DNA from: Bispira polyomma
Taxonomy: Eukaryota
Assembly: GCA_965649765.1 (NCBI GenBank)
Contig: OZ287755.1
Coordinates: 46,562,001 to 46,626,000 of the forward strand
Reading direction: 5' to 3'
DNA: 64,000 nt
Each line of letters opens with the position of its first letter. The first letter of the stretch is position 1. Positions 12,845 through 53,790 of this stretch are shown one piece after another. Below the pieces are notes generated by a model, which searched no databases, was not told the origin of the DNA, and saw only the letters and a program-made list of their open reading frames with translations. The translations under genes were made by a program, and so were the position numbers.

Positions 12845-13053
12845 TTACAGTAGTGAAACAGAAATACACAAAAATAGTCAGAAATGGGTGGGAATGCGGG
12901 GAAGAGTTACAGTATTGAAACAGAAATACACGTAAATAGTCAGAAATGGGTGGGAATGCGGGAAAGAGTTACAGTATTTAAACAGAAATACACGTAAATA
13001 GTCAGAAATGGGTGGGAATGCGGGGAAGAGTTACAGTATTGAAACAGAAATAC
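12845..13053. repeat. Minisatellite, 62-bp unit, ~3.3 copies
   Basis: GAAACAGAAATAC-like motif recurs at 12855, 12917, 12979 and 13041 with near-identical intervening sequence. Confidence 0.95.
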
Positions 13054-13247
13054 GTGGCAATATTTGGAAGTAGGTGGAAACAGGCTGAAACACAACAATT
13101 GCATGGACCGAAGACCTACGGTAGTAATAAGGCACTACTCTGTCAAGGGCGGAAGGCCTTTTTTACCTTTTTCCGCTTTAGTGAGGTTGAAAAAGTTTTG
13201 AATACTGCATGGTTCATGTAGATAATATAAACGAAATGCTAACTCTG

Positions 13248-29398: not shown

Positions 29399-29594
29399 TG
29401 CGGGGTAGCGCCGTAGGGGATAGCAAGTTCAGTGCTACTAGTATTTTCTACCCTGGGTTCATGCCCTATGAACCCCTTCCTAATTGGTCACTTGTGTACT
29501 AATTAACCTCTGTTTTCCCGCTTTTTAGCTAGAATCCTCACTTATACTATTGAAGTCATTTAGGCAACAACGCCATCTTTAATATTTTACATTA
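29399..29594 (+). repeat. Split direct repeat A1 (probable Pol II promoter)
   Basis: Matches 34712-34907; contains ATTGG (reverse CCAAT), CTTATACTAT and an Inr-like TCATTT. Confidence 0.92.
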
Positions 29595-29932: not shown

Positions 29933-30907
29933 ATGGCCCCAAGGAAACAATACTACTGTCACAAGTGTGAAACTAGTCATATTAAACCCATTGATGAAAA
30001 CTGTAAATTATATACCAGTGTGGGAACTTCCAAGCAGAACTCTGTGGCTAGCGATGGTGTAACTGCTGCCGACGTTAACCTACAAATTTTGACTGAACTC
30101 AAAGCATTAAGTGGGCGTATGACCCAAGTTGAGCAGCAAGTTTATCGCAGTTCACATGGAGCCCAGGCTTTGCCGGCGCCGAGCCCGGGGAGTGCAGCCC
30201 AACCTAGACAGGCGGAGCAAACCACTTCTGAGCTACTGGTCCCGACGCTACAGACACTACGTTCATCCGACTCCCTACAGACTGCAGTGGATTCACGTCT
30301 TAAGGAATTGGTGGCCATTAATGAATCAGGTACGTCAAAATCTCAAAGAGGGGGTCCTGACACTCTGTGGGTGAAGAATAAGGTGGCTTGGCCTCAGAAC
30401 GTTATACTAGGGGGACAAAACAAAACACGAGTTACGTATGACGCGTTGTCAATGGCCCAGTGGGTCTCTGGTTTTGCCAGTATAGCTAGAGATGAAAGTA
30501 GTTTAGACGTTAAGAACCAAATGTTGGACTATCTCACTGACCTCATGGAGGACGCTCATGACTTTTCCTGGACCTCGGCTAAGGCTAGCCATGCCGTTGT
30601 ACTGTGTAAAATGGAAGAGGGTAAGGTAACCTGGGGAGATGCCCACAAGTTGGACAGGATTAGACGGGCTCATGCCCAAAGGGTTGTCATCCAGACTGCA
30701 AATAGTAATCATCAAACCAACACCAGGAAAAGTCATGAGAAGTCCATCCCATGTAGGTACTTCCAGAAGGGTACTTGCCCCCAAAAAGGGGATCACGAAT
30801 TCAAAGGGGTGTCATATAGTCATGTGTGTAACCAATGCTTTCAAAATGGGAGGTCTTACCCCCACCCTGCAAAAGACTGTAAAAAATATCCGTTAAAAAA
30901 CGAGTAA
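29933..30907 (+). CDS. Gag-like ORF1 of element 1
   Basis: Intact 324-aa ORF; N-terminal CxxC-H-C motif, heptad-like segment, core WPQN...YDALS...LMEDAHDFSW shared with element 2, C-terminal Cys/His fingers. Confidence 0.85.
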   Translation: MAPRKQYYCHKCETSHIKPIDENCKLYTSVGTSKQNSVASDGVTAADVNLQILTELKALSGRMTQVEQQVYRSSHGAQALPAPSPGSAAQPRQAEQTTSELLVPTLQTLRSSDSLQTAVDSRLKELVAINESGTSKSQRGGPDTLWVKNKVAWPQNVILGGQNKTRVTYDALSMAQWVSGFASIARDESSLDVKNQMLDYLTDLMEDAHDFSWTSAKASHAVVLCKMEEGKVTWGDAHKLDRIRRAHAQRVVIQTANSNHQTNTRKSHEKSIPCRYFQKGTCPQKGDHEFKGVSYSHVCNQCFQNGRSYPHPAKDCKKYPLKNE

Positions 30908-30929
30908 GGCACTGCAGTAAGGCAGTGCC
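30895..30929 (+). promoter_or_regulatory. Putative -1 programmed ribosomal frameshift signal
   Basis: A-AAA-AAC at 30895-30901 in gag frame, 6-nt spacer, stem GGCACTGC/GCAGTGCC with 6-nt loop. Confidence 0.75.
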
Positions 30930-33151
30930 AGCCTATGTTTCTTCCACACAAGAGGTGGTCAGAAAAAAACTTGCACAAAAAGTTGTAAATAATTCTAAAG
31001 GTTTTCCCACTAGAACTGTGTATAATAGTCTTAAAAATGTAATACTGGCAGTACACATTGGAGGGCAGATTGGGCCAAATTTGTAAATAGATCTTATGCT
31101 GATGTGGTTAAAAGAAAGGCTCCCTCCAGGTCTGCTGCCATAAAGGTTTCTGTACAAAGTGCAAATGTGAATCAGAGGTGTCAAAGTCACCATGTTAAAT
31201 GTTCACCATGTTTAAATAACAACCAAATGTCAGAAGTGTTCACAAAACATGAACTGGGGCACAGAGTGAGTGTTAAAGCTTTCACAAAAGGTGCTTCCCC
31301 TTTTACAAGTGCACAGAGGAATAATGTAATGTCAAAAATGGGTAAACCCCCTCCAACAAAAGGTGATCAATTTGGCCAAAAGCTGGAAATCACAAAATTA
31401 GACATTCAGGGCAAATGGCCCATTTCCACTCACAATAGGTTTTCCCCTTTGAGTGACAATGACCATTATATGGACACTAGTGACAACTCTGTCACACATT
31501 TACCAGATACTTGTAACCAAGGTCAAGGTCTTAAAATACTCTCTCGAGGTATTGGGGGAATAAAATCAGACAAATATGACCTAGAACTACAAACTAAATC
31601 GAAAAACAGGGAACTTATAAAGCGTGCTTGCAACCAGCCTAAGTTCCAGCAATGGGATACTCAAACTACAGATAAGTATGGGTTTATTCCGCTAAATGAC
31701 CTCCAAGTTCCCCAAACGGATAAACGAGTAAAGTCGGATAAGTCTCTGTTAGAGTTACACACTCAGATTAAGCAGGACAACTACCCAAATTATATGGGGG
31801 CACAAGTTCAATTGAAATCTGAGTTGAACCCAGATGTATGGGAAAAATACTTGACTGACTACTGGGATAAACAACTCCCCTTTTTGATAAGATATGGGTT
31901 TCCCCTCGATTTTAATCCTGACAGCAAGTTATCTCATACAGAACAGAATCATTCATCTGCAACACAATTTCCAGATGATGTGCATGCTTATTTAAAAGAA
32001 GAGACTGAGTTAGGCGCCATGTTGGGCCCTTTCCATAAGGCCCCCATACAAAACCTCCATATTTCTCCCTTTATGACTAGGGAAAAGCCAGGTGCCGCAC
32101 ACAGGCGCGTTATCATAGATTTAAGCTTTCCTCATGGCAACTCTGTGAATTCGGCTGTAGTCAAGGATAAGTATCTCGGTACTGCGCCGTCAGGTACATC
32201 ATGAAACGTCACGGACATGACGTCACCAACTATATCGACGACGTAATCGGCTATGGTGACGTCATAGAAAGTAAACATTCATTTGATATATTGCTCAACT
32301 TACTCCAGGAACTAGGCTTTGCGATTAGTCACAAAAAACTTGTTCACCCCAGCACGTCAGTAACGTGTCTGGGGGTGTTAGTTAATACAAATGACTTGAC
32401 AATCTCATTGCCAGATGAAAAGCTACTAGAAATAAACACACTTGTGCAAGACTGGCAATTAAGAAACTACTGCAGTAAGAGGGAGTTGCAGTCACTGCTA
32501 GGTAAATTGTTATATGTATCCAAATGTGTTCGAGTTTCACGTGCTTTCTTAAACCGAATGCTTGACGTCCTAAGATCTGTAGGCCCGGATCAAAAAGTAA
32601 AACTTACACCTGAGTTTCATCAGGATGTAAATTGGTTTAAAAAATTTTTACCAACATTTAATGGAAAAGCTTTCTTTGAACACAAACCCACTACCGATTG
32701 TATTCAGTTGGATGCGTGCCTCCAAGGTCTGGGAGGCCGTTGTAATGACGAAGTATACCAATTCCAAATTCCTCTAGGTTATCTAGATTTCACGATAGTT
32801 CACCTGGAGATGTTAAACATCTTAGTTGCCATTAGGCTATGGAAGTCAGCGTGGGCAGGTAAGAGGTTAATATTGCAATGCGACAATGCTGCCGTGGTCA
32901 CTATCCTCAATTCAGGCAAAACTAAAGACCTCACTTTGGCAGCTATTGCCAGAAACATCTTCATGACCGTAGCCTCCCATGATATCAGTCTCAAAACCAT
33001 TCACATTTTAGGTAGACTTAATACAGTGGCTGATCTCCTCTCTAGGTGGCAGATCACGGCCAGCAATAATGACAAGTTACTAGAACTGGTATCGAATCCC
33101 AAATGGGTAAAAGTAAAAGACACAATGTTAGAAATAGATTGGTCTATCTAA
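30901..33151 (+). pseudogene. pol (RT-RNaseH) of element 1, disrupted
   Basis: LGPF..PFMTREK..RVIIDLS, YIDD, QSLLGKL, RNaseH LDAC...HLEMLN...CDN...ADLLSR; 1-nt frameshift near 31033 and ~76-codon deletion at ~32184. Confidence 0.9.
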
Positions 33152-33157
33152 TTGCAG

Positions 33158-34148
33158 ATGTACCTTCCAAGCTAAGAAAGATTGCTACACAAGCCTCATA
33201 CAGAGCCCATCAGGCCTTTAGACCAGCCACTGAAAGGGCCTATACAAATATGTTTAGGATATTCTTGGCCTATTGTAGTTTTGCTCAGGTCAGGCCTCAA
33301 AATATCTCCCCCCTCTTTATATTGGCTTTCTTAGAAGTATTAGTGGTTAATCATGTCTCTTCCTCCTCCATTGCGAACTACCTCTCGGCGGTTAAAGCTA
33401 AATTGGCCCTCTATGGCCTTGACGTCTCTGCATTTGCAGATCCTAGAATTAAGTATTACCAAAAAGCCCTCACACTCAATAGCCCCTTCAGGGCTAAAAT
33501 CAGCGCTATTATTGACATTCCCCTGTTACTCCAAATTACTCAAATTTGTGACAGCATGTACATGGGGCAGGTCTTCAAGGCTCTGTACCTCATTGCTTTC
33601 TTTTCTTTTCTTAGAATATCGAACTTACTTCCACATGCTGTCTCTCAATTCTCTCCACTAGTCCAACTGGCCCGGGGGACGTACTTTTTGCCTCCCCTGG
33701 CCTCCACCTCATAATAAAGTGGTCTAAAACAATGCAGTCAAAGAATGTAGCAAAAGTTATTAAAATACCGAGCCTAAGTGGCTCTAGTCTCTGTCCGGTG
33801 GCTGCCACAAGGGCCTTGCTAGCTATTACTCCTGGACACAAAAATTCTCCTCTCTTTCAGTTTAAAAAATACCATAAATGGTCCCCAATGATTGACACCC
33901 AAGCTAGACAAAATCTCACTCAAATTTTGAGGCGTCTTGGCCTCCAGCAATCAAACATTTCTTTCCACACCTTCAGGCGTTCAGGTGCCACCTTGGCCTT
34001 CAACAATAATGTCCCAATTCAAGATATCCAGAGCCATGGCACTTGGACGTCTGATTGTGTGTGGAAATATATTGTACAGGATCACAATGCATCTGACCAA
34101 GTCGCCCTCACCTTCAAGTCCCTCCTTTCCCCTTCTACTACTTCCTAG
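33158..34148 (+). CDS. Tyrosine recombinase of element 1 (one frameshift at G-run 33674-33678)
   Basis: Catalytic motifs FLRISN (R), KWSKT (K), HTFRR (HxxR), HGTW and WKY (Y); adding one G restores LARGDV as in element 2 (LARADV). Confidence 0.88.
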
Positions 34149-34157
34149 TTGGGCTTT

Positions 34158-34712
34158 GGGGCTTTATTTACATACATTATATACAAATAAAATATAATAA
34201 TGCTTAAATATAAATATTTTGGGGCCACCTTACCTTATACTAATTTAATCATTTTACATCTTTACTAAATCTCTTTTGGCAACCTCAAATAAAATCTAAG
34301 GTTACCATTTTTCTTAAACTTAAACTCATTCTAAGGTTACCCTAACTTCAAGTTAGGGTTACCCCTAAATTCAACCTTAAAATTTCAATCTTTGGTAACC
34401 CTAACTTCCAAGTTAGGGCTACCCTTAACCTTAAACTCAATCTTAGGTAGCCCTAACTTTCAAGCTAGGGCTACCCCTTAAATTTTAAAAAATCCCTTTG
34501 GTCACTTTGGCCTGTTGTCCTCAGGTTAAGGTCACCTTAAACTCTTAACTTCTCCTAAACTCTTGGGGCTAAGGTGGCCCCTTACTACACAGTATGTAAA
34601 TAATTATTAGTGATAACATAGTCAAATTAAAGCTAATATCCCCAAAACCTACCTTTCTTGTTATTTTCCTGTGTTACACCACATTAACAAGTTTACTAGG
34701 GTAGGGCACTGT
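34158..34712 (+). repeat. Split direct repeat B1, containing a hairpin array and AATAAA
   Basis: Matches 35810-36364. Confidence 0.92.
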
Positions 34713-34907
34713 GCGGGGTAGCGCCGTAGGGGATAGCAAGTTCAGTGCTACTAGTATTTTCTACCCTGGGTTCATGCCCTATGAACCCCTTCCTAATTGG
34801 TCACTTGTGTACTAATTAACCTCTGTTTTCCCGCTTTTTAGCTAGAATCCTCACTTATACTATTGAAGTCATTTAGGCAACAACGCCATCTTTAATATTT
34901 TACATTA
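34712..34907 (+). repeat. Split direct repeat A2
   Basis: Matches 29399-29594 and abuts B1 directly. Confidence 0.92.
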
Positions 34908-35809
34908 CCCACCCACTTCCCCCTACTACTTCCTCTGTAGTTTTCAGCTATGCGTCCGTCCCTGGAGTGCTGTATGCAGTCCCTGGGGTTCCTGAAGTCT
35001 CACTTTACACCTTGGCGCAGGGGGGTGGGGGCTCGGGGCTGTGGGCCCACGAGTTATGCATTACTGCTGGCCTTCACAGTTCCCCGCCCTTGGGGGCCTT
35101 CTGGGGCCTCAGGTGACTTATCTCCCATACTTTTCTGGGTAACACCAGGGCCCTTAGGGGCCAACACTTAATTTTAGGTAGCTGCTTGCTGCTGAGGTTG
35201 CGTCTCCTTTTGTAGTTATCAATGTATGTTACTTTATTGTCTTCAGGGTCTTCCCTTTGTTGTATATCAAATTGATAATGTTGTCAAATGTCCTGCGTCA
35301 GGCAGCACAATTTATATGTGTACAGTATGTGAAGTCGCATCCTTTTTTGTTGTCATAGTAGCATGTAAAGTATAACTATTAATGTTGTTCCTCGTCACAA
35401 CGAGGACTGGATTTGTAAAATGTTTGTATTTCACAACCTGGTGTTGTCGCTAGTATAACGTAATGCATTGCACATCATGTGGTGTGCAAGTGCATTTGGT
35501 AACTTTGTGATCACATGTTGAACTGTAAGCATGTAGTTTCAGGCATACTGGATTGATGGATCTCTTGTGGCTCAGTCAGGAATGAACTCTATACAAGCAA
35601 GCACTGCCCTCCTGGAAGACAAGAGCTACTCGATTTATATTTTGCTCATGTCTGTATGCATGTTCTCTGTAAGCCATGGTAATTGTATATGCTAGGGGTT
35701 TAAGGTTTAGTGAGTTTTTGCTACTCTTATGGACTTTATTAGTGAGCAGCACAGGTTTTAGTTTCTTAGCTAGTACCATGGTTTTTTAATTTCGATTTTA
35801 CCCTTTTTG

Positions 35810-36364
35810 GGGGCTTTATTTACATACATTATATACAAATAAAATATAATAATGCTTAAATATAAATATTTTGGGGCCACCTTACCTTATACTAATTTAA
35901 TCATTTTACATCTTTACTAAATCTCTTTTGGCAACCTCAAATAAAATCTAAGGTTACCATTTTTCTTAAACTTAAACTCATTCTAAGGTTACCCTAACTT
36001 CAAGTTAGGGTTACCCCTAAATTCAACCTTAAAATTTCAATCTTTGGTAACCCTAACTTCCAAGTTAGGGCTACCCTTAACCTTAAACTCAATCTTAGGT
36101 AGCCCTAACTTTCAAGCTAGGGCTACCCCTTAAATTTTAAAAAATCCCTTTGGTCACTTTGGCCTGTTGTCCTCAAGTTAAGGTCACCTTAAACTCTTAA
36201 CTTCTCCTAAACTCTTGGGGCTAAGGTGGCCCCTTACTACACAGTATGTAAATAATTATTAGTGATAACATAGTCAAATTAAAGCTAATATCCCCAAAAC
36301 CTACCTTTCTTGTTATTTTCCTGTGTTACACCACATTAACAAGTTTACTAGGGTAGGGCACTGT
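35810..36364 (+). repeat. Split direct repeat B2 (3' terminus of element 1)
   Basis: Matches 34158-34712. Confidence 0.92.
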
Positions 36365-37709: not shown

Positions 37710-37941
37710 ACAAACACACAAACACTCGATCATTTCATGTATTATCCCAAATATATTGATGGCACAGTTCAACCGAAAAAAAAGTATGAATGAAAACCAC
37801 ACTACTAAATACAAGTCCTAATATAAATAAACCAATCCAGTTTAACCTAATCTATCAAGTTCTTGTATTACAGACTTGTCAAACAGTTTGATTGTTATCC
37901 CATCATCCCCGGTATGCCAGTTTGAATGGGCTTTTCCTAAT
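37710..37941 (-). pseudogene. Diverged duplicate of the last ~32 codons and proximal 3' UTR of NLR gene 1
   Basis: Tandem homolog of 37942-38163; encodes LGKAHSNWHTGDDGITIKLFDKSVIQELDRLG* vs LGKTHSKWHAGDDGMTIKLFAKSVIQKLDRLG*. Confidence 0.85.
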
Positions 37942-38063
37942 ACAAACACACAATCATTTCATATATTATCCCAAATATATTGATGGCACAGTCCAACCGA
38001 AAAAAATATGAATAAAAACCACACTACTAAAAACAAGTCCTAATATGAATAAACTAATCCAGT

Positions 38064-41000
38064 CTAACCTAATCTATCAAGTTTTTGTATTACAGACTTA
38101 GCAAACAGTTTGATTGTCATCCCATCATCCCCGGCATGCCATTTTGAATGGGTTTTTCCTAATTGGTCATGGCATTCTCTGAGATCCACTTTCCTCAGTT
38201 GGGTACACCTTAAGAAAGCCTCCATCAGTTTCCGAAAGGCCTGCTTCGATAACTTGTTTTTTGACATCGTAATCTCGGTCAACCGTGGTAGAGAGCGAAG
38301 AACTGGTATCATAATGTCCACATGCATGTCACTGTTGAGGCCAGAATTTGATGCCTTAATATACTGCAGCTGTTTGCAATTGTTTAGGGCCAAGACAACA
38401 AACTGCCAGTTTTCTGCATTGCTAAGGTCATTGCCTACTACATTGATGCGCCTTAGTTGAGGGAAACATGGCAAGGCATTCCCAAGTTTCTTGAAATGAT
38501 AAGTGTGGTGAAGCTTGCACTCATTAACATTCAGTTTATCCAAAACGAAACAGTGTTTCAAACTCTCAGTAAAGTGTTCCCAGGTCACTTCATTTATATC
38601 ATGGAAATCATTTTCGGACACGTCCAGGTGTTCGAGTTGCACTAAATGCCCTAGAGTTTTAGCTAGTCTTTCAACTTGGAAATCTTGATGAATTTTGCAT
38701 TTGGAAATAGCAAGTTTTTTAAGGCGAGAACATTTTGCCAGCTGTTTTGTGAAGATGTCCCATTCTGTGTGATCACTGTCCCCTAGATTGTTGCCATCCA
38801 AGTTGAAGTGAAGAAGGGTTTGATGTAGAAATCCGAGAGTTTCCCCAAGACTGGCAACGTGTTCTCCTGTAAGGCTGTTCTTCGATAGCTTTAAATATTG
38901 CAGCTTTTGGCAGTGCTTTAGACCAGATATAAACACATGCCAGTCATGTGTAGCAATCCTACCAAGTGCATTGTGAGTCATATCTAGTGCAGTAAGGTGC
39001 TGAAGCTTTCCCATACATGTAGCATTGCCCTTGAAATGGCCAGGCTGTAAGCCACACTTTCCTAAATATAGCTTCTCCACAGTTGCTTTACCTAGTGCAT
39101 TAATAAAACCTTGCCAATCAGATGGTGTCACATTCTGCATGTTGTTTTTTGCAAGTAATACTTCTTTTAGGTTCTTGATTTTGTCAACAGATTTGGCTAA
39201 GCTTCTTACTTGATGAATCAAATGGCAGTTGGTGAAGTTAATAGTCAACAAGTATTTATTCCCTGGTAATGATGCACAAAAGAAACTCCATGAAATTTCA
39301 TCAATGTTACTGAGGTTGTTGTGAGATAAATCTATGGTCTGAAGCTCACAGCACTGAGTAACTAATTTTGTGATGCCAGTAATATGAAGTGACTTTGTCA
39401 ACCGACATCTGGAAAAACTTAACTCACGTAAGCTCTTTGCATTTTCACATTTTTCTGTAAATTTTGCCATGCTTGGGCTATCCATTTCTTCGAAGCTGTT
39501 TCCTGATAGGTTAATAGTCGCAATACATTTCATTTTGTGTAATGCATCACCTACTGCTAAAAGACACGATCTCTTATGAAGTTCACATTTACTTAAGTCC
39601 AACACTTTTAGATGTGCCAGTGTTTTAAAAGCTCTCAAAAACTTGACAACCTCAGTCTCACATAAATTTCCATAGCTATTTGCTGACAGGTTAAGGGTTG
39701 TCAAGTCAGGAAATTCTGCTAGAGTTCTCCCAAGTATTTGTATCTGGTAGTCATGCACTAAGTGGCATTTGCTCAGATGTAAATATCTTAATGCAGTCAG
39801 CTTGGTAATTGAATGAACAAACGATTCCCATGTGGCAGAATCAACGTGGCAAAAGTTATTTTGTGATAAATCTAGAAGCACTAATTTCGGAAGTAGATTA
39901 AACTTCTGGCCAAGACCCTGCAGATGAAAATTTTCATTCATCTTACAAGCAGTGAGTTTCAATTTCTCCAGGTCTGAGCAATTTCCAAGCTTCTCTGTAG
40001 CAATAGTCCATTTCTCCTGAGATACAATATCCCTTAAAAATGACTGATCTATACACAAAGCCTTTAACATGGGATTATAAAATCTTGCAAATGATTCTAT
40101 GTAAACCTTCTTGTAGATAACATTCGTAGTGCCCATGGAGCTGCACCAGTCATGATCAATGACAAAGTTATGACAAATTGAGACATTTGTACATTGTCTT
40201 TTAATAAGATGTGCAATCACTTTCTGTAATGACTCGGTCAAAGAGCTCAGATTATTACCCGAAATATCGATAAGTTGAGTGCTCGGATTCCTTGCCAAGT
40301 TCAGAAAAATATCCTCCAGATGGCAATTCTGCAGGTTACAAAATGGAAATCTTAGTTCCTTCAGCAATGGTCTGGATTGTAAAACATCAATCAGATCCCT
40401 CCAGATGTTGTACCCCAGTGTGGACATGTCTTTGTTTCTGATTTCCAGATGTGTTACTTCGTCACTATTGCTAATTGCTGAGGTCAAAAGTTGCAAATCT
40501 ACATCAGCCCCTGCAACACTTATTACAGAGGGCAGTTGGTTCTCTAGCAAGTAAGACTCTAGGATGTCACCTGTCTTGCTCTCCCTTGATTCAGTGATGA
40601 TGCTCTCGCAGTTGTCATTCCAGCAAACACTTGCTTTAATCCCATACAATTCAGTTAACAACAGACATTTGAAATGATTGGGCATATTTTTGCAGACATA
40701 ATCATACATAGCCATGCTGTAATTGTCTGGAACACTAGGAAAATCACTATACATTCTGTTTTTCTTCACATTAAGCAGGTACCTAGCATAATGTTTAACA
40801 AGTGAGACATCCTGTGATTCAAACACCAGCGATGTTTCATATTGGGTATCAAATATACTTCTGTTGTTTTTATCTTGATTAGCCTGTAAATGGCATGCAC
40901 ATATCCCATACAAGAATACATCCTTCCCAAACTCTGCTGACATTCCTGATGCAAACTGTATTGTAGTCACAAGCTGTCGAAAGCTTTCTTCCATTGTTTT

Positions 41001-42355
41001 TGTTTCTTCACTGAATTCTTCTTGTTTTGGTGGTTCCCACTCTTTTCGAATGCAAACATTTTCCAAACCATCTAATATTCTTTTGTTGTTAAACATTGTC
41101 CTTTTCAAAGTCATTAAGTGCATCGCTGTCTTTGGGAATCCAATCTTTGCACAAAATATTCCAGCAAAATATTCCTGAAAGGTTTTGTGGCAAAATGTAT
41201 ATGCACGTTGTCCACCATTCATTTGTTTTAAACTTCCAGGAACTTCAATAAAGTAGCCTATCTTCTGAACCAAGTCTGCTTCCAGAAAGTTGTCTTCTAA
41301 ATCACTTTGATAGAAAACATGGTCTTCCTGAGCCAGTTTATAGAAGCTCATTCTACCTATGAGGTGTTTCAGCAAAGGTAAGGATTTTTTTATGTGCTCT
41401 CTTACATGAGAAACAACCGGCATTTTGGCAGAGTACCTTTTCTCAAACACTTCCGCAAATGTGTCGTACATCTCAAGTCTGGTTCTTGGTATGGATAAGG
41501 TCTGCAATGAGTTAGAGGCACAATGTTCACGAGCCAAGACACAGAGCAATGTCAAGTATATTGGCACTCCCAAGATTTTATGGTCAAACAGAAAGTCTTT
41601 ACACCGAGAAATAAATGTCTCAACATCCTCTGGTCCAGCTTTTTCACCCAACATACGATGTATAAATGTTCCTCTGCTTTCTTCTGTTACACCATTCAAG
41701 GTCACCATTAAATCTGCATAAGGCTTCAGCTTCTCGAGAACACTTTGATACATTCTAGTTGTGACAATCACTGTTGCTTCTGGCAGTTTGGTCCTATTGA
41801 TGAGTTTCCAAATATCAGAGTGACCAAAACTGGAGATTCTCTCGTCCAGGCCATCTATTAAGAATGTGAGTCGGCGTTGAAAAGCAACATCCTGCATGAA
41901 GTACTCAAAAGCTGGCCTGTATTGCTTTCCAATGAGAATCAGATCTTCAAATATTATGTCAATTAAATCATGGCTATGCACTGAACGGGCTGGGATATAA
42001 ATAATAAAGCTGTTTTTGTTTGGTAGAGAATCGGTTGCCCAACCCATTGTCCATCGCTGGAGAAAGACTGTTTTACCAGATCCTGGGTTTCCCTCTACCA
42101 ATATGACTCTGTGTTCTTTCACATTGTCCACAAATAGTCTATCAGCATCTTTGATTTTGTATGTATCTTGACCATTCTGCCAACGACAGTTACTTGCCAT
42201 TCCTTCATACCTGCCCTTTGGTACATGTAGAATAGCATTCAATCGCAGTAGTTTTGCTCTATCTTCAATGACATCAAGGTGAAATAACTCTCCAGGAATG
42301 GGAATAATATCTTTTAGTTTGGTCAGCAAAATTTCTTTCATGTTTGAGAGCATAT
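38064..42355 (-). CDS. NLR gene 1, terminal exon: NACHT NTPase, winged helix and ribonuclease-inhibitor-like LRRs
   Basis: Walker A GNPGSGKT, Walker B FLIDGLDE, sensor VTTR, WH motif FCHKTFQEYFAG, many LxLSxN/LxLSxC repeats; acceptor TTTCCAG|AT (phase 1). Confidence 0.93.
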
Positions 42356-43400
42356 CTGGAAATATACCATTGACATGTATATCAGTTTAAACTAAATTCA
42401 ATCATATCAAAATTATAATTCTTAACAAAGACATTACTTATTATTGTGACAGGGGCCTGTAAATAAGGAGCATACATTACAATACAAAAAGCTAGAGAAA
42501 CAAAGTCTCCCTTACAATGTTTGATAGCAATGTGAGGCAATACAGTAAAACTAACGTTCGCGCTCTGTAACCTCTTCCTCATTTTTTGCATTAAAATTGA
42601 CCATTTACAAGTTCCGACCAACAACCACCATTATAATTTTAGTTGTAAAACTGTGAACACCAAAGTATATTCAGTGAGTGGTAATCCAATATCAACAGAT
42701 AAAAGTGACATATTGCAATGGAAAGCATTTATGTGAGGGGACAATAATATAATTTGTGACATCGCACATCTTTGACTCCTCAATTATTCCTCTCGCTATT
42801 CCTTGGAACTTCAATGGCAAATCTATTAACTGATATTTATCACTTCAAAGTATTTTTTGACAAGCAATCCAGATAATACAACTGAACTCACTTCTATTAA
42901 ATGAAAATTTTAGAATATAGATAGCATAAGGATCATACAACAATATTGTATACAGCAGTGATGTATTTAAGGGAATTTGTTTTTAAATCTCCACTTAAGC
43001 AACAACCAATAAATTAGGTTTCATAGAATAACTGATCAATACTAGCAACCATTTTTAGGTCGTCGTCTTGTACAAATTTTTATATTTTAGTTTATACTCC
43101 TGTTGTAACATATCAAAACAAAGTAACAACTTGCAATTGAAAGACATTTGATGAAGACACAATTTACCAGTTACAGTAGCTGGTGCTGAGCAATTAAAAT
43201 TACCTTGCATGTACTGAGAAGTTGACAGGTACCATGTTTTCAAAGAAACAACAGCTTTCAGAAAGAGTTCAGGTTAGAAATAGAACACTACTTTTGCATA
43301 TATGTTTGCTTTTCAAAAAGTGTGAAAAAACCTGTTAGACAATGTCATCAATCTTGTTGGAAAATGTATTGTTAGTACATATAAAGAGACCCAATCTAAC

Positions 43401-44010
43401 CTTCAAAAACTTCTTCAAGTTTTACATGGAGAGATACCATCAGTTTACTCTGCCCTATGATACGGAATAACTCTGCATTCGGATTATTATCTGAGTGCTT
43501 GAAAAAGCACATGACACTTGAAATATCAGATCCATGAAGTTGTTGTAGAATATGTTTGATTTTATCCTGGTTTGATTCACCTCTGCAGGAAATGATCACA
43601 TCATCTGATATCAGTCTGGCTACAAGAGAATTAACATCTCTCAGATTTTCTGTCAGTAGCTTATAATTCTGTTGTATGCAGTCCCTTACTAACTTCTCAA
43701 CTTCCAGCCATTCCTTACTTGTATTTCGGGCTTCGCCGACAATAACATTGTATACAACTTTGTTGTTACTGCTAAACAGAGCATCTAGGAACTTTTTTGC
43801 TTTTCCTCCTGTAGTGTCAGACAGTATGATTTCTATTAGAAATGACAGTTTGTCTTCATCTGAAGTACAAACTTGTACTTTTTCCAGATCAGCTTGATGT
43901 ATCACAAAATCTGCGAAAAGCACAGAAATCAACTGATTCACATGTTTGGTTTTGCTTTTTATTTCTTCAGCAAGTCTCACAATCGATTCCCTGAGTTGCA
44001 ATTTGTCTAC
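43401..44010 (-). CDS. NLR gene 1, exon with two CARD-like death-fold domains
   Basis: Acceptor TTTTTCAG| (phase 0); donor GAAG|GTTAGA (phase 1) joins the NACHT exon in frame; two helical repeats with V..L...L....VI pattern; paralogous to 62592-63219. Confidence 0.8.
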
Positions 44011-45019
44011 CTGAAAAATAGTTCACAGATAAGATTATGTCCAGATAAAACAAGTCAAAAGAATTTCCCAGTTTTTCTGGTATTATATATTCTTCAATTT
44101 TAGGTGTGGATCTGGGGCAAATTTTTACAATAGCTATACAGAGATTGTTTGTTTCCATGATTACTCAAAAACTACTAAGACAATTACGATTGGATTTGGT
44201 AAGATGGCCTATGGGCAAAGAAAAAATTCGATAAATTTTTGAGTGTATCAAAGCAGAAGGTGGGAACCCAGATTTTTTTTTTTTTTTTGACTCCCTCGTA
44301 CCTTGGAAGTGCAAAAAAAATGACAATGCAGGCTAGTGAGTATTTTCATAGGATCTTCTCAAAATGTAATTAAAATTCAAATGTCCTGTTCAGTTCTGTA
44401 CCATATGATCAGGCCTTATCTGTATCTGGTAAAAACGGAGTATTTTTTAAATATGTATACAGCAAACATATTTGTCAAAATAAGAAAACGATGTGACAGT
44501 AAAAATATCATATAGAAGAAATGATATATTGTAGTGATATAAGTAGGATGATGACTACCATAACTTATAACCTCACACTGTTCTGTTGTTGGACATGTAT
44601 GCTCTCTAAAGATATCAATTTCGACCTTTTGAAAATTTACATTATCCATTTTTTTTTATCATTCATTTTCGTCCAAGTCCCAAAAAGTAAAGATGGTTTT
44701 ATTTTTAGAAGTTCCCAATACTTCTAAGTAAGCTTCATATTACCACATTTTTAAAATATCAACTACTTTCATAAAGTTTTGAAACATTCAAGATGGCTAC
44801 CCAATCGTCAATTTTACCTGTGTCAATCCTCCTTCTGAGCAGTGGGACGATGGAGGTTAGACATTTAAAACATACAAACTCAAAATACGGCTGCCAGATA
44901 TACAAGTCCATTGTAGTTACTAGATATCAATATATAAGGTTTACATACGAGTAAAAATGTTTTATGGTGGGCTGACGCTTATGCGGCAGCCCCCTCAGTT
45001 CTGGTGGCAGGTCACTGGG

Positions 45020-45092
45020 GGGCCAATTAGGCCACCTGGGGTCATGAGGGCAAGTATAAAAGGGTTTGCCGCCAACAGGCACCATCATTAAT
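45020..45092 (+). promoter_or_regulatory. Putative Pol II promoter of element 2
   Basis: CCAAT at 45023, TATAAAAGG at 45055, Inr-like TCATTA ~30 bp downstream. Confidence 0.55.
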
Positions 45093-45149
45093 TTACAGAA
45101 CTTTGCTGGAACAAGAGTGTTTTACAACGGGGCTTTACTACCCCTACTA

Positions 45150-46000
45150 TTGCTTATACTACAACAACTGGTGGCCATGAATGAGAAGATGGATAGCATG
45201 GATCAACGAGTACAAGCTACTGAGGCGGCGCTGTGCACTCCCAGCGCCAGTAAGGCATGTAATCTTTCTTCTAAAACTGATTCTAGTGCAACTAAGGTTA
45301 CTGAACCCGTGGCTGAGGCCGTTATACCCTCTTTAGAACACTTGCATACCAATGAAGGTTTGCAATTTCAGGTTGATCAGCGGCTACTGCAATTACAGCA
45401 GTTAAACGATATTACCAGAGGTAAATTTAAGTCTCAAAGGGGTGGTGCTGAGGCCCCAATAAAAAGAAATGTGGACTGGCCACAAAATTTTGTCTTGTCT
45501 GGCGTCAAAAAAGTTAGACCCACGTATGATGACCTTTCTCTGGTTCAGTTTGTATCTGGTTTTATTCGTTGCATTCAAGAGCAGAAAGTCCCCACTGCCT
45601 GAGAGGCTATGTTAGATTATCTCGCGAATTTAATGGACGACGCCCATGATTTCTCTTGGGACGCCGCTAAAGCTTCACATGCCATATTGCTTACCAATAT
45701 GGAACTGGATCGTCCTAATTGGACGGACACTGACAAGGTCGACCGGATACGCCGTGCTCATGCACAACGTCATATACCCTCGGCATCTAGTGGGTCTAGC
45801 TCTTCTAAAACCAGTAGTAATGGTAAAAACAAAAGTCAAGGTAATCAAATGGTGTCAATTGTCGTTTCTTCCAGGAAGGAACATGTAAGTTTAGTGCTAG
45901 CCATCGCACCTCGGGGCAACTATTCAAACACTGCTGTGAGAGTTGTGATGGAAACCACCAGACTAAGCTTTGTTCTAAAAAAGGTTCTGCAAAAAACTAA
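45150..46000 (+). pseudogene. gag of element 2 (5' part missing, TGA at 45600, frameshift at ~45847)
   Basis: KSQRGG..WPQN..YDDLS, LMDDAHDFSW; shifted frame gives CRFFQEGTC...HCCESCDGNHQTKLC...KN*. Confidence 0.85.
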
Positions 46001-46026
46001 GGGGCCACTGCCGGAGTGCAGTGGTT
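45991..46026 (+). promoter_or_regulatory. Putative -1 frameshift signal of element 2
   Basis: A-AAA-AAC at 45991-45997 directly before the gag TAA; stem CCACTGC/GCAGTGG with 6-nt loop; the -1 frame runs into ORF 46021. Confidence 0.75.
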
Positions 46027-48452
46027 GAAAACAAATCTGTAGACGAAATATATTCTAGGGTTGTATACAATTCCAACTTTGTTGATTTTAAACTGTTTAA
46101 TCATGTTTGTTTTAATTCACGTGTGTGTGTAAAGCCAAGTGTACGACGTTCCTATCGGGACGTGTTGATAAAAAAGACAATGGGTGCCCTAAAAACTTTC
46201 AGTAGAAAACCCAGTGCGGGCGAAATTGGGGAAACAAGCCAAACTGAATCCCATCCAGTTAAAGTTGCTCTCAAAACGTTTGCATATGGGGGTAAAAACG
46301 TGGGCTGTCAACCCGTTGTTAACATTCAAGTGCTTTCCAAAAATAGTATGCCAACCAAGAGCTGTGACCATTTCAACTCAGTTAATGTGTCAAGCAAAGG
46401 TGACGCCTCCATTGTGAATTCCAAGTTAAATGGTGTCAAACAAAACCATGAGAGAAAAAGGGCCCCCATTGTTGAAACAATTAAGTCCAGCTCGGTGAAA
46501 AACAGCAATTAGCCCTTCATAATAGGTTTGATTGTTTGGATATCCCTTGTGTAGAAACAAATAGTGTTGTGGGCGACCAAGGGCGAGGGGGGGGGGGCGA
46601 AGCTGGTGAAAAGACTGCGCCTCTCCCCAAACAAGCTACTACTAAATTGATTCATTGTGATGATAAGTATGCCTTAGACCTCCCTAAAGGCCCTGACAAA
46701 AGAAAACGCTTGAATGATGCACAAGACTGCGTGACTTACAAATTGTGGGACATCCAAAATAGTGGTAAATATGGGTTTATTCCGGTGAGTGATTGGGGTG
46801 ACCCTGTGATAGACCATTCTAGTGACAGGCTAACAATGGATGTGTTCACCATGCACAAATATGTTAAATTGGATGAGCGTCCTAACTATGAAGGACTTCA
46901 GATACCCGTTAGTACACAACTTAATGCCTCTGTGTGGGCCAAGTATCTAGTAGACTACTGGGATTGGGAGCTTCCTTTATTGATAAAGTTCGGGTTCCCC
47001 CTTGATTGTGACAGAAAACATGAGTTTAAGTCAGAACTCTGTAATCACTCTTCTGCCACCCAGTACCCTGATCAGGTGACACACTATCTAACGGAAGAAT
47101 GTCAGCTCGGTGCTATGTACGGACCATTTACGGTCCCCCCCATTGGGGATATGCACATTTCACCTTTCATGACCCAAGATAAATCGAGCTCGGTTAACCG
47201 ACGGGTAATCATAGATCTGAGTTGGCCACAAGGCCATTCGGTTAATGCTGCGGTTTGTTCCAACTCGTACTTAGACAAAGAATTTGTGCTTACTTACCCG
47301 TCTATTGATACTATCACTAGTCAAGTCTTGGCCATGGGTAGGGGATCACTCATATTTAAGGCCGACATTAGTCGGGCTTTCAGGCACGTGACCATCGATC
47401 CGAAAGACATAAATCTATTAGGTTTGTACTGGGATGGGTATTACATTGATGGGTCACTACCTTTTGGCTATCGACACGGCTCGGTTATTTTCCAGTGAAT
47501 TTCGGACGGAATAAGGTACATAATGGAGGGTGAAGGTCACCACATTACCAACTACATCGACGATCTCTTATGTTGCTCTATTCTTTCGAAAGTACACAAA
47601 ACATATGACCGATTACAAGCATTGTTAGTAGAGCTGGGTTTAACCCTGAGCCAGAAGAAGCTGGTTCCCCCCTCTACCAGAGTAATGTGCCTGGGCATTG
47701 TTATAGACACCATGCAATTCACCACCTCTATACCAGAGGAGAAATTGGCTGCCATTCAGACTACGTGTAGTAAGTGGGTGGCCAAAAAATCTTGTACCAA
47801 ACGGGAACTTCAGTGCTTACTTGGTTCCTTACTTTATGTTTCTAAGTGTGTCAAATATTCACGTTTTTTCTTGAATCGAATGTTGCAACTCCTTAGAAGC
47901 AATCATAACAGTAAAACCATGAATATCACCCCCGAGTTTCGCAGAGATCTGAACTGGTTTGTGGCGTTCCTCAATAAGTAACCTTTTTTCTCCATGCCCC
48001 CACTACTGCCACCATAGAATTAGATGCCTGTCTCACTGGTATATGGGTAGCAAGTTTATTTTCTCCCCATACCTGCCTCCATGCAGAATCAAAACATCGC
48101 CTCGTTGGAAATGTTAAACATATATGTTGCTTTAAGGTTGTGGGGTGAGCAGTGGGAGGGTCAAAAGATACTTGTAAAGTGTGATAACCAGGCTGTGGTT
48201 AGTGTCCTCACCCATGGTAGAACTCGTGACTGTGAGTTGGCTCTCTACTCACGCAATATATTTATGTTGGCCAGTCAGTTTGACGTTGAGCTAAAAGTCA
48301 TACATATTCTAGGTGAGAACAACACTGCTGCAGACTTGCTGTCCCGTTGGACTAACTCAGTAAAGGATAATGTTCTCTTACAGGAGCTGGTGGGCCTGCC
48401 TCAGTGGTGTCCAGTGTCAAATAACTACTTATTGCTCAATCATGAAATTTAA
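45997..48452 (+). pseudogene. pol (RT-RNaseH) of element 2
   Basis: RT motifs KADISRAF, LPFG, YIDD; RNaseH LDAC, LEMLN, CDN, ADLLSR; stop at 47496 and several frameshifts. Confidence 0.9.
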
Positions 48453-48492
48453 TGTATATATGTTGTTCTCCTGCCAGTGTTCTGTTTTACAG

Positions 48493-49514
48493 ATAGAGAT
48501 CCCCTGCAACAGTTATTGTACAAAAATGCAACCAAGAAACTGCACCTGGCTTTCTGCAGATCAACTGACAGGTCCTACACAGCCATGCATAGGCTGTATT
48601 TGGCTTATGCCTCTTTCATGAATCTGCCTTTTGACCAGGTGACAGTTTTTGACTTACTTGCCTTTTTAGAACTGTTGCAACACAATTCTGTAAAACCAGC
48701 CCATATGGCAAACTAACTATCTGCCATTAAGGCTAAATGTATTGTTTATAATGTTCCCTCAAATGCCTTCAGTGACCCCCGCATTGCCTATTACCAAAAG
48801 GCAGTACAGCTAGCTGCCCCCCTTCATGTTAAGCTAAAGAAAATTATTGACATACCCACTTTAACCCATATTATTGAAATTTCTCTCACTACTTATATGG
48901 GTGTGATGTTTAAAGCCGTTTACCTTGTCAGCTATTTTTCTTTTTTACGCTTGTCCAATCTAGTCCCCCATTCTGCTTTGCAGTTCTCACCTCTTAAGCA
49001 TCTGGCTAGGGCCGATGTTATGATTCACAAGGATAAAGCTGTGCTCCTAGTGAAATGGTCAAAGACCATGCAAAGCAACAATCAAATCAAATTAATCACT
49101 GTTCCTAGGCTTTCGGGCTCCCCTCTCTGCCCGGTGAGGTCAATGGAGGACATTTTGCTGCTAACCTCCCCTGAGCCTAACTCCCCGTTGTTTCAATTCA
49201 AGGTTAATGGCAACTGGTTGCCTCTAACTGATACTCGAGTGCATCGGCATTTTAAAGATATACTTGCTAGGTTGCAGCTAAAACATTCTGGCCTTACCTT
49301 TCACGCTTTCCGTCGTTCAGATGCCCCTTTTGCTTTCAATCATAATGTCAGCATTCAAAATATTCAAAATCATGGCACCTGGACGTCGGACTGCGTATGG
49401 AGGTACGTCGCAGACTCGGTGGATGCTGGCCACCAAGTGGCTGACACCTTCAAACAGCATCTTTCCACTACTTTTTCTTCCCAAGTCCTATTGTTGGGCT
49501 TTGGGTGTTTGTAA
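48493..49514 (+). pseudogene. Tyrosine recombinase of element 2 (in-frame TAA at 48714)
   Basis: FLRLSN, KWSKT, HAFRR, HGTW, WRY; aligns with the element 1 YR throughout. Confidence 0.88.
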
Positions 49515-50737
49515 TTAATAATACCTCATGTGTAACAGTTGAACTATTATGTAAATTCGTTAAATTATTGCCTAGTCTAGTCTAAATGTAATGTACTACA
49601 TGCTAAGAATGTTAACTGTACTATCACTTGCAAGTGGCACTATTACTTTGACTTTCTATTACTTTATTACTTGCCTGTCAATACCTTTAATTTGACTCCA
49701 TTGTATGAAAGTGCAAGGGCTAAAGTTCAAACTCTCAGTCATAATTTATGGTCACCTTACTGTTGCTAATTGCCTACGGGCTGTGTGATTTCCATAAACA
49801 AGTAAATTTGCGTAAGGTGACCTTTAAATCTTTAATTATGCTACGTAAAATATTTATGACTTTAAGTGACCTTAAGTCACTTACGTTCCTATTTAAATTA
49901 TAATTTACCTAAGGTGACCTTAAGTCGCCCTGTTTAAGTTGTTATATTAAAATATAATTTACCTAAGGTGACCTTAAGTTGGCCCGTTTAAGGTGACCTT
50001 AAGTGTCACGCTGTATTAAAACTTATAGGACGCAAGTCATCTTGTACATAGTAGTTTTAACACTTAGATTAACATAATAAATATTTTACCGCATTCTGTA
50101 TCATTTATATCTTGCCTTCTTGACCTCTGACCCCTCTGGCCTGTCACTCGGGGAAATGTTATATAATGTCCACATACATGTTTATGGTTCAAAAATAATG
50201 CCAGATGTAAATAATGTTTACATATATGTTTATGGTTAACATGTGAATTGAAATGTTTTTATTAGACTTTTTGTACAGCGTTATAGAGGTAGGTAGACAC
50301 ACACGTAGGAAAAGGTCACAATATTGTAAAACATTAAAAATACATCTTTATCATGGAGGGCTCCCTGAATATTTCTTTAGTGTTGTGGGTAAAAATGTTG
50401 TAAATTATATTTATATTATATGATAAGATATATATCAGCTACCCAATGAAATACATAAAAATACAAATCTAACAGGGATATGACGACAGGTACCAAGAGA
50501 TCACTTGGTTGAAAACGTTATGGTCATGAAAAATTTCAAATTTCTATGTGGTTTTATAATTCACGCACGTATTGATTGATGAAAACCCTTATGCAAAAAG
50601 TCTGTATTGTATAATGTACATGTTCATGTATATGATTATAATTGTGGTAAGATGGTTAACGGGCCCAGGTCTGCCACCACTAAATGTACAGTACACTTTA
50701 TGTGGCTCCCTGAACACGACACATAAACGGAACCTAA

Positions 50738-51353
50738 TGCTGTGGTCACATTCAGCTTATGTTCCACTTACGCACAAAAAATGGCTAATGTAAGCTAAAA
50801 CGTAGTGAACATAAGTAAAACGTAGTAAACGTAAATAACGTATACAAGTAAACGTAAGTAAAATACTTTAAGTTTTGTTATTTCCCCTTTTTTTTAAAAA
50901 AAATATCTTAATTTTTGCACAGCTCGAAATTTAAACGGGTGGTGCGTTCGCGGCAAATGTTTGACACGTATGCGTATTTGACATAAAGGATGGGTCCACA
51001 AATAATATTAAGGACGAGGAGAGCAAGAACGAAACGGGTTTACAAACGTTAAAAACAAGAACAAGACTAAAACAGATTTAGAAGCGTGGCTAACATATTT
51101 CTAAAAACGTGGCTAACGTGGCTAATGAGGCTAACATATCATTAAAACGTGGCTAACGAGTTGAACATAATTGAAATGGCTAATAAAATGTATTAAATGC
51201 ATGTACAAACGTGTACAGATGCGTACTAAACATGTAACGTGAAATGGCCGATACATTTGATTTTTGCTGCGTTTCCCAATACATGTATTTTGTTTTCTCT
51301 TGTTTACGAAAAAAACAAAACGTAACGCGAACGTACTTAGTGTGACCACAGCA
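50738..51353. mobile_element. PIF/Harbinger-type MITE, copy 1
   Basis: TIR TGCTGTGGTCACA / TGTGACCACAGCA with TAA duplication on both sides. Confidence 0.85.
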
Positions 51354-52314
51354 TAAAATAGACTACTTTATCACGAAACCTCTTACTTTCTTTCAAACCC
51401 CCCCAGAAAAACACACCAAAGAATATGATATTTGTAGCCGCCGAAGACAGTAAGAACCGTAAGATTATCTTGTTAACTTTTAACAATAGAATTATGTTTT
51501 ATTTTTTTTAAGAACCAACTCACCCCATGGGCTTCTGTGGATTTGTGTCGTCGACGATAACACTCTACAGGGCCCTTCTTATCCATATTTTTTTTATTTC
51601 ATTTAGTGGTCGCACTGATACCTAATCAACTCCATATTCTTGACAAACATGGCGACTAGATACACGTACTTATATTTATAAAACTCCGGTTGATACGAGT
51701 GCCACAACAAACAACATGTATTATAAATACGTTATTAGAATACGTTGATAGTTCGTTCTAGAGTATTGATCTGTTGTCAGAACCTATGGGTGTCGTTACT
51801 TATTTGGTGGTGCAATATTTACGAAGAAAGTTGTGGTAGTTTCAACCATCGGGAAATGAGACATTCCCGTGTGTTATTCCAGTGCATAAATGGCTGGGCA
51901 AATTTCCCCATAGAATAGAGTTGTGTACGTCCAAGCAATTTTCGAGCACACCTTCTACCGTAAATGAAAACACCAATACACTAGTTCAAAAAAGGTGTAA
52001 ATATAGATTCCGACTTCAGCTGATTGTGCAATATTAGTGTTATTTTCAGGAGATTAATAGCTGTATTTTCTGTAGGAACATTTTGTTGACAGAAATACAC
52101 TTATTCTTTCATTAACTCTTTTATTGATATAGTTGCCATAAATAAAAACTGTTTATGATGACATATGATGGCCGACTCCTAAAAAGTTCAGTCCCTGAAT
52201 TAATTTAAATATAATTCGAAGAATGGGATTCTTTTCACACTACATTAATACCAGTACTCAAGTGTAGCCTTTTTGAGGCTCAGGTTGGCTCTACACTGAT
52301 ACAATACATATTAA

Positions 52315-52920
52315 TGCCGTGGTCACACTGAGTATGTTCGTGTTACGTTTTTTTCGTAAACATGAGAAAACCGAGTGGGAAAATGGGGAAACGTAGCAAA
52401 AATCAAATGTATGGGCTGTTTTGTGCACGTTCAGTACGCATTTGTACACTTTTTTACACCCATTTAATATGTTTTAATAGCTTTTCCAATTATGTTTACC
52501 TCGTTAGGCACGTTTTAATAATATGCGAGCCTCGTTATCCACGTTTTAGCCTCGTTAGCCATGTTTTAGAACTACGTTAGTCACGCTTCTAAACCCGTTT
52601 CAGTCTCATTCTCCTCGTCCCTAATATTATGTGTAGGTATAGTTCATTTTACTTCCAATCTTCCTGTCAAATATGCATTGAATACGTTTCAGAAATTTTT
52701 GCAGCAAACGGCTAAAAACGTAAAAAATTTTGTGCAGTCCGAAAATTAGGACGTTTTTTTAAAAGCAGGAGATAACAAAACTTATATAAGATACCACCTT
52801 TTTCTTACGTTTACTTCTGTTACTTCCATTTACTACGTTTTACTTCCGTTCTCTACATTTTACCTTACGTTAGCCATTTTTCGTGCGTAAACAAAACGTA
52901 AGGCCAGTGTGACCACGTCA
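52315..52920. mobile_element. PIF/Harbinger-type MITE, copy 2, inverted relative to copy 1
   Basis: TIR TGCCGTGGTCACACT / AGTGTGACCACGTCA, TAA duplications; internal sequence is a reverse-complement homolog of 50738-51353. Confidence 0.85.
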
Positions 52921-53399
52921 TAAGGGGCAGTTCCTTACATCCCAATAAACGTTAGAAACGTTTATAAACTTACTTTTAAATATATATATAAACCTTACAT
53001 AAGATATTATTTCTTTATTTGATATCAGTTAAAATTGTTAAACGTGCGCATATTCTCCCAAACCTTTATAAACATTTATAAATATGTTGTTTTTTTTCTA
53101 AATAAAAAAATGTTGTCTCGTTCTCAATTTGTAATGACACAGAGCATTTATTTAGCTTCTTTTTTTTTTTTTAGGGGGGGGGTTTCCGTTTTTAAGGCCA
53201 AAAAGAAAATACACTGCTAAAAAAAAATAGGAATTTTTAGTAATTTCAAAAGTTTAGAGAATTTTAATTATTTTGATATGTATTTGTATCAACACATCTC
53301 TTTTCCTTATTTCAAACTATTGTTCCTTCCCTACGTATCAAATGTAGTTAATAAAAATGGTCATTTTGGTATTTAGCCAGCAACTGATGCGAGTGTCAA

Positions 53400-53790
53400 T
53401 GGTGTTAGGATTGACAACCTCTTCATTAGAATGTCTTTGAAGAAAGTGGTGTAAAATGCTTGTTGCCTTCACTACCTTAGTGGCTATAAAGGTTAATAAT
53501 CGTCTTTGGTATGCACCATCTTTGGGACAAAATTCCAAAACCTTTCTTTGATATATTCTCCTTGCTCTAGAGTCAATTTTTATTTTTAATTACATGTAGC
53601 GTCCTTTTCTGATAGATTTCTACCTGGATATGGCATACTGAGGTAATGTTTTAGTGGAAAAGCTTGATCACCCACAATAGCATTTGGCAATAGACCAATT
53701 TCTGGAACATCACGCAAGATCTTTGGAGGGGATTTGTACGTTTTACCAAATTTAACCAAGTTTGTAGTCCCAACAATATCATCCAAATAG
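53400..53790 (-). pseudogene. Harbinger/PIF (HARBI1-like DDE) transposase relic
   Basis: IVGDQAFPLKHYLSMPYPG, then in shifted frames SRARR..GFGIL..RW and KVVKATSILHHFL; may extend to ~54150. Confidence 0.75.

Follow-up and report, generated by a model that had tools for sequence, protein, structure and literature searches.

A heptamer of the form X-XXY-YYZ with a downstream stem is the textbook signal for -1 ribosomal frameshifting. The described systems closest to the one presented here are the gag-pro sites of the deltaretroviruses (HTLV-1, STLV-1, HTLV-2 and BLV) and the astrovirus site, which share its heptamer, AAAAAAC; the available text of the source gives spacers of 6 nt for HTLV-I and STLV-I, 7 nt for HTLV-II and BLV and 6-8 nt for astroviruses, and notes that a simple stem-loop is generally assumed at the deltaretrovirus gag-pro site (PMC3835772). 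For animal LTR elements, a 2003 survey counted a -1 pol with a classical heptamer in 28 of 51 animal retroelements (PMC5009743); the first 300,000 of the 449,034 characters of that source mention neither DIRS nor Ngaro nor a tyrosine recombinase. How the second and third ORFs are translated in the order DIRS is unsettled in the available text of the literature found. Frameshifting was proposed at the RT/recombinase overlap by Poulter and Butler 2015, as quoted in the accessible part of PMC13003380, and the accessible parts of the papers on Ngaro elements describe overlapping ORFs and no gag-pol recoding signal (PMC8547959, PMC4157794, PMC9210276). We found no description of a gag/pol frameshift signal for the order DIRS in the available text of the following sources: PMC3783388, PMC8547959, PMC6681497, PMC3266345, PMC13003380, 10.1101/2022.06.16.496473, PMC9210276, PMC3835772, PMC7192593, PMC9341512, PMC4157794, 10.1101/2021.01.25.428050, PMC12440569, PMC5009743 and PMC7075266. 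Such a -1 gag/pol overlap may already have been noted by Poulter and Butler 2015, by Goodwin and Poulter 2004 or in Repbase entries, which limits any claim to novelty.

The locus presented here lies in the window, that is, the whole 64,000-nt stretch of Bispira polyomma DNA that was analysed. It holds two copies of a defined 35-nt signal, common to more than 30 subfamilies of the genome, in which a slippery heptamer, a spacer and a putative hairpin stand at the end of gag. Judged from sequence, this cassette is real and conserved, and it is very probably functional.

Host elements and their surroundings

By their layout, the host elements of both sites are Ngaro-type tyrosine-recombinase retrotransposons and not a retrovirus; the class call rests on this layout, and a PAT element that has lost its methyltransferase can look alike (PMC4157794, in the text available). 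The order A1-ORFs-B1-A2-B2, with gag followed by RT/RNase H and then by the recombinase, on one strand and methyltransferase-free, is shared with Ngaro elements of the order DIRS as the accessible text of PMC8547959, PMC4157794 and PMC9210276 describes them. Element 1, on the plus strand, has this order. Its 5' end is the 196-bp split direct repeat A1 (29399-29594), 100% identical to A2 (34712-34907), and its 3' end is B2 (35806-36364), which pairs with B1 (34155-34712, about 559 bp, 99.6% identity), a repeat that includes a palindrome array. Between A1 and B1 lie the gag ORF (29933-30907; 324 aa, ATG to TAA, tail K-N-E-stop), pol (31035-33151; linker, RT and RNase H, in two pieces with part of the RT gone) and the tyrosine recombinase ORF (33158-34148; Phage_int_SAM and Phage_integrase matches, with a frame break in that copy). 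The Gag of element 1 has Cys/His clusters near both ends and no Pfam match. Element 2, also on the plus strand, consists of a gag remnant with an internal stop, a frame break and the tail K-N-stop (45060-46000), a pol that begins in the -1 frame and has several breaks downstream (45979-48453), and a predicted acceptor TTTTACAG (48485-48492) with a broken recombinase ORF (48485-49514); the Gags of the groups of the two window elements are about 37% identical. Split repeats were also found in 6 of 8 long sister loci. They are absent from element 2 (window 43500-53500) and from 2 of 8 long subfamily 1 loci (L225, L230), and the copies lacking them are probably truncated.

The domain content of the family was read from four unbroken sister pol ORFs of 815-863 codons. 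RVT_1 lies above the Pfam cut-off in all four, and RNase H-like and Phage_integrase matches fall mostly under their cut-offs. The pol stop follows shortly 3' of RNase H. Pfam gave no match among the four ORFs for a protease or a DDE integrase, nor, with E up to 0.1, for a methyltransferase; neither a hydrolase nor an env domain was found in the element family, and the ESM Atlas returned only unnamed clusters, with recognition under threshold. A retrovirus or LTR retrotransposon could be ruled out, the split repeats not being LTRs and protease and integrase matches being absent. An assembly artefact was likewise ruled out, the layout being repeated on many contigs.

Both retrotransposons sit among two tandem NLR-like genes on the minus strand (38064-44022 and 54551-63315), with NACHT plus leucine-rich-repeat ORFs of 1440 and 1437 codons and a CARD ORF upstream of each. 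Two further elements of about 2.1-2.2 kb (50726-52932 and 59222-61348) have long inverted arms that are 76-88% complementary, and in this they resemble foldback or non-autonomous DNA transposons. Further repeats lie at 12845-13080 and 37718-38163, namely a 62-nt tandem repeat and, at the 3' end of the first NLR-like ORF, a duplication spaced at about 222 nt. Arrays of short palindromes, spaced at about 50-60 nt, lie 3' of the recombinase in both elements (34326-34476, 35978-36128 and 49846-49995). An Rfam scan of 28000-54000 gave no match for the cassette and two sub-threshold microRNA matches, both on a palindrome array.

The cassette in the window and across the family

At site 1, the heptamer A-AAA-AAC occupies 30895-30901 in the gag frame, whose tail reads ...L-K-N-E-stop. 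The 6-nt spacer GAGTAA (30902-30907) includes the gag stop TAA (30905-30907), and the predicted stimulatory hairpin that follows (30908-30929; 8 bp, 6-nt loop, core CACTGC/GCAGTG) has the arms GGCACTGC (30908-30915) and GCAGTGCC (30922-30929). Site 2 has the heptamer in the gag frame at 45991-45997, the 6-nt spacer TAAGGG and, 6 nt 3' of the heptamer, a predicted hairpin (46004-46025) whose arms, GCCACTGC (46004-46011) and GCAGTGGT (46018-46025), also enclose a 6-nt loop. The earlier note on this DNA had claimed an in-frame A-AAA-AAC ending both gags and a stem with a 6-nt loop, and both are found as described; its spacer of 5-7 nt containing the stop is right as to the stop, but the length is 6 nt at both sites. 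The G-C to C-G change that it saw between the sites is present at the second stem pair, the first pair being G-C at site 1 and G-U at site 2. Pieces of 46 nt fold into these hairpins with z = -3.7 for site 1 and -2.8 for site 2; with 89-nt pieces the folding z is -2.6 and -0.9. On the plus strand of the window, a stem of at least 8 bp at 5-9 nt follows 2 of 429 X-XXY-YYZ heptamers, exactly the two sites, and the chance rate for heptamer plus stem is 0.075 matches per 64 kb (mean of 40 simulated strands). The minus strand has 2 such cases among 418 heptamers, both in palindromic repeats of the element tail.

The -1 frame of element 1 (30883-31083) opens 4 codons 5' of the heptamer and reads KKRVRHCSKAVP...RTVYNS; it closes after 63 codons, at a stop at 31084, owing to a frame break further downstream in that copy. 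In element 2 it is open over 45979-46509 and closes after 173 codons (stop at 46510). The motif claimed for this frame, R.VYNS, is thus reached in both copies, as R-T-V-Y-N-S in element 1 and R-V-V-Y-N-S in element 2; the frame closes before the RT in both, however, and the window alone therefore cannot show the frame of pol.

The family was surveyed in a 1.035-Gb assembly of 75 contigs by four Gag searches with at least 118-151 matches each, one of which used a tail ending in K-N and so carries a slight bias toward copies ending in this way. The 232 loci fetched, hand-picked to spread across identity classes and not random, represent 194 distinct copies in 36 clusters at 88% nucleotide identity. 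AAAAAAC stands exactly 6 nt 5' of the stem in 170 of the 194 copies, AAAAAAT in 6 and another heptamer in 7. The stem core is present with at most two mismatches in 183 copies (161 of them exact) and missing in 11, mostly by visible deletions. In all six AAAAAAT copies (L067, L077, L132, L160, L190, L201) the C precedes G, which fits CpG decay, and the change makes a TGA stop in the frame AAA-AAA-TGA. The codon before K-N has A as its third base in 35 of 36 subfamilies, across the residues A, S, V, T, P, L and Q, against a background of 406 of 1636 four-fold sites (25%). Over 13 subfamilies, one fixed codon is used for every invariant residue of the cassette (5 of 5) and, in the rest of the aligned pol, for none of 35 (0/16 four-fold, 0/19 two-fold). 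The distance from the heptamer to the gag stop 3' of it is 0 nt in 10 subfamilies and 3 nt in 23, and the stem is always at 6 nt.

The frame of pol was determined by a test blind to the heptamer, which asks which frame stays open between the gag stop and the RT motif. Among the copies scored as unbroken, it is -1 in 64 of 68 (12 subfamilies), 0 in four and +1 in none. Intact relatives with pol in another frame would have spoken against the earlier claim; the four exceptions are explained by a cassette indel in three and a false motif match in one. Of 33 subfamilies, 16 have a -1 frame that starts at most 4 codons 5' of the heptamer, and in four the distance is just 1 codon; an overlap so short leaves no other place for a frameshift. 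A second in-frame heptamer lies inside the overlap in 5 of 33 subfamilies.

The earlier note had also called the stem covarying, and this was checked over 10 named pairs in an alignment of 29 rows, 27 of them for subfamily representatives and one for each window site; 87.9% of the cells are paired. The covariation score is 0.152, compared with 0.060 in shuffles, none of 500 of which reach it, and at most 0.047 in slid controls; double changes occur in three pairs, a number not above shuffles (253 of 500 reach it). Five stem pairs are invariant, and only one of the 29 rows departs from the common 6-bp core; the outer pair is open in 11 of these rows and the inner ninth pair in 10. RNAalifold retains 7 pairs, and all 26 representatives have a predicted hairpin of 7-9 bp (-12.7 to -16.3 kcal/mol), with a ninth pair around a 4-nt loop possible in most sister copies. 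The Gag tree, built without three single-copy rows whose cassette is shifted or damaged and containing two misaligned long rows, assigns the G-C to C-G swap to a single branch (support 92/92); three more double stem changes, each in a single subfamily, make about four covariation events in total. The near-invariant core also codes for H-C-x-x-A-V and cannot itself prove pairing. As far as these alignments go, the covariation of the stem is real but thin: its score exceeds the controls, but the description was overstated, the core hardly varying and the swap being that of one branch. A conserved pseudoknot was not found, the complements of the loop being scattered 7-93 nt away at no common distance.

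The cassette is apparently common to other genomes, at the level of protein sequence. K-N is present in the tail of 92 of the 99 foreign Gags that reach the profile end (of 120 homologues), and these foreign Gags share no more than 62% identity with the copies fetched from Bispira polyomma; their records may come from few species. Among more distant Gag representatives (147), 46 of 70 have K-N and 24 of 70 do not, so that the cassette does not occur throughout the wider group. In 11 of the 120 foreign Gags the stop lies at least 5 codons past the heptamer and the tail reads K-[NK]-x-x-[GS]-T-A, which is the stem in the gag frame; three of these continue x-M-Q-C. One fused ORF, P0190, reads KKRLGHCLNAVP...RVIYNS 3' of the zinc finger. 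A scan of metagenome contigs with the Gag alignment gave 173 pattern matches, none confirmed; it provided no foreign DNA, and the foreign support is therefore protein only.

Routes to Pol and to the recombinase

We consider it very likely that the cassette directs a canonical -1 programmed frameshift that makes Gag-Pol. The fusion, as the earlier note had suggested, is supported by the pol frame, the short overlap, the fixed distance between heptamer and stem and the frozen synonymous sites, and further by the absence of a conserved AUG ahead of pol and of a conserved splice acceptor within 60 nt of the heptamer. In the proposed mechanism, unspliced RNA would be the source of Gag and Gag-Pol. 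The majority of ribosomes would halt at the gag stop, 0-1 codons past the heptamer, and release Gag, while a smaller share, held up by the 7-9 bp hairpin 6 nt further on as the tRNAs for lysine and asparagine occupy A-AAA-AAC, would slip back by one base by tandem tRNA slippage. They would then read K-K/N-R-x-x-H-C-x-x-A-V, a variable linker of 200-270 residues, the RT and RNase H. A hairpin at a fixed 6 nt suits the ribosome entry channel. Both the formation of the hairpin in vivo and the slip itself are inferred; with predicted energies of -12.7 to -16.3 kcal/mol the efficiency of slipping would probably be modest, and the Gag-Pol fusion would stay uncut, no protease domain having been found. 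The heptamer A_AAA_AAC is among the most shifty for mammalian ribosomes in the available text of PMC5009743, and the usual spacer in -1 frameshift signals is 5-8 nt according to that of PMC7075266.

Splicing from a donor in gag to a predicted acceptor appears to give rise to the recombinase. A predicted phase-1 donor, CAG|GTACGT, lies in gag of element 1 at 30330-30335 on the plus strand and probably serves the recombinase mRNA; G|GT of the donor xAG|GTA is kept in 165 of the 167 copies showing the motif. The predicted acceptor of element 1, TAATTGCAG (33149-33157, plus strand), is directly 3' of the pol stop and in phase 1 to the recombinase, which gives splice positions of 30330 with 33156-33157 in element 1 and of 45421 with 48491-48492 in element 2. 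When acceptors are located by anchoring on the conserved recombinase Met, YAG is found exactly 92 nt 5' of it in 80 of 90 copies, the next best offset reaching 31 of 90; this Met, at recombinase residue 30, could be an alternative start. Relative to pol, the recombinase is read at -1, 0 or +1 according to subfamily, which argues against a frameshift at the pol/recombinase junction. No annotated Gag-recombinase fusion was found among 120 recombinase and 267 Gag homologues, whose records look like intron-free gene calls, so that this result does not bear on the splicing. Three contig sets from one study, of undefined kind, showed no GT..AG joint among the 15 joints listed of 25 and are silent on expression.

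Pol could instead arise from a start of its own, by internal initiation, from a shorter transcript or by re-initiation past the gag stop, with the hairpin serving packaging or termination; we regard this as very improbable. It would suit the Met codons found in the linker of many subfamilies (at codon 12 in one, codon 3 in another) and the poor conservation of the linker, whose identity averages 26% over its first part. The first Met of pol, however, lies anywhere from 3 to 425 codons 3' of the heptamer at a position not common to copies; in some copies it is 3' of the RT motif, and in one subfamily it comes at 288 or 381, past the first conserved pol motif (213). Conserved -1 frame residues begin right at the cassette, and a start of its own leaves the fixed A-AAA-AAC and the fixed stem distance unexplained. 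In the linker, pN/pS is 0.47-0.78 (8 of 8 pairs) versus 0.15-0.43 on the RT side (both uncorrected), and the other two frames hold 5-13 and 17-29 stops in the 200 codons past the junction (14 copies picked for an open -1 frame), so the linker would be translated from the junction onward under weak constraint. Readthrough of the stop codon was ruled out: in all 14 copies the gag frame meets 5-13 further stops within 200 codons. There is scarcely any likelihood that pol is translated from a spliced RNA in which the donor in gag is joined to an acceptor close to the pol start: such a route could draw on the conserved donor (165/167) and on the apparent splicing of the element to its recombinase, but the gag/pol junction is A-rich, and 20 of 26 representatives lack a pyrimidine-rich YAG within 60 nt of the heptamer, the other six differing in its place and phase, so that no splice acceptor at the junction is common to the 26. 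We give equally little credence to a polymerase stutter on the six A's, by which transcripts with an added A would fuse gag and pol. The same -1 layout and a conserved run of A's would be expected from stuttering too; the run is, however, just six A's and nearly always closed by C, a form suiting tRNA re-pairing, and stuttering does not require a hairpin at a fixed 6 nt, a distance that fits the ribosome (5-8 nt in the available text of PMC7075266).

A different question is whether the slip takes place at the heptamer while the hairpin is incidental or only partly involved, being conserved for H-C-x-x-A-V, a pseudoknot or a bound protein. This seems unlikely to us, and since it still gives Gag-Pol by a -1 shift, its probability overlaps that of the preferred explanation. 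It would account for a core that all but one of the 29 rows share and that recurs in foreign Gags at most 62% identical, which goes beyond the needs of pairing. Against it, the wobble positions of the core codons are frozen and the flanking pairs covary, the pairing of the loop to downstream sequence has no common distance (7-93 nt), and coding on both arms plus pairing may be enough to freeze the core without a further factor. The frozen core can be explained by coding on both arms together with pairing, or by a bound protein. Along the latter line one may speculate, with slightly less expectation, that one protease-free transcript yields Gag by translation, Gag-Pol by the -1 slip and a Gag(N)-recombinase by splicing, and that the CACTGC/GCAGTG core is read by its sequence, by the Gag Cys/His domain or a host protein, the ratio of Gag to Gag-Pol being regulated and not set by the strength of the hairpin.

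Relation to described systems

The mechanism favoured here, a -1 slip at the gag/pol junction, is a textbook one and would not surprise specialists; for this element class we found no description of it. If true, tyrosine-recombinase retrotransposons would join retroviruses and LTR elements in using gag-pol frameshifting, a point relevant to whether the frameshift trick predates the split of these element classes or arose again. The site proposed for frameshifting in Ngaro elements would also move, from the RT/recombinase overlap to the gag/pol junction: relative to the proposal of Poulter and Butler 2015, known from its quotation in the accessible part of PMC13003380, the RT/recombinase junction of the Bispira family has no fixed frame and has a predicted splice acceptor. 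Compared with the deltaretrovirus and astrovirus sites, the Ngaro cassette joins gag straight to RT/RNase H in a non-viral element in which no protease, integrase or env domain was found, and its gag stop lies 0-1 codons from the heptamer; the stems, compared without alignment, are unrelated in sequence as far as seen. Animal LTR retrotransposons, in turn, have a DDE integrase and a protease, whereas the Ngaro family described here has split direct repeats and a tyrosine recombinase.
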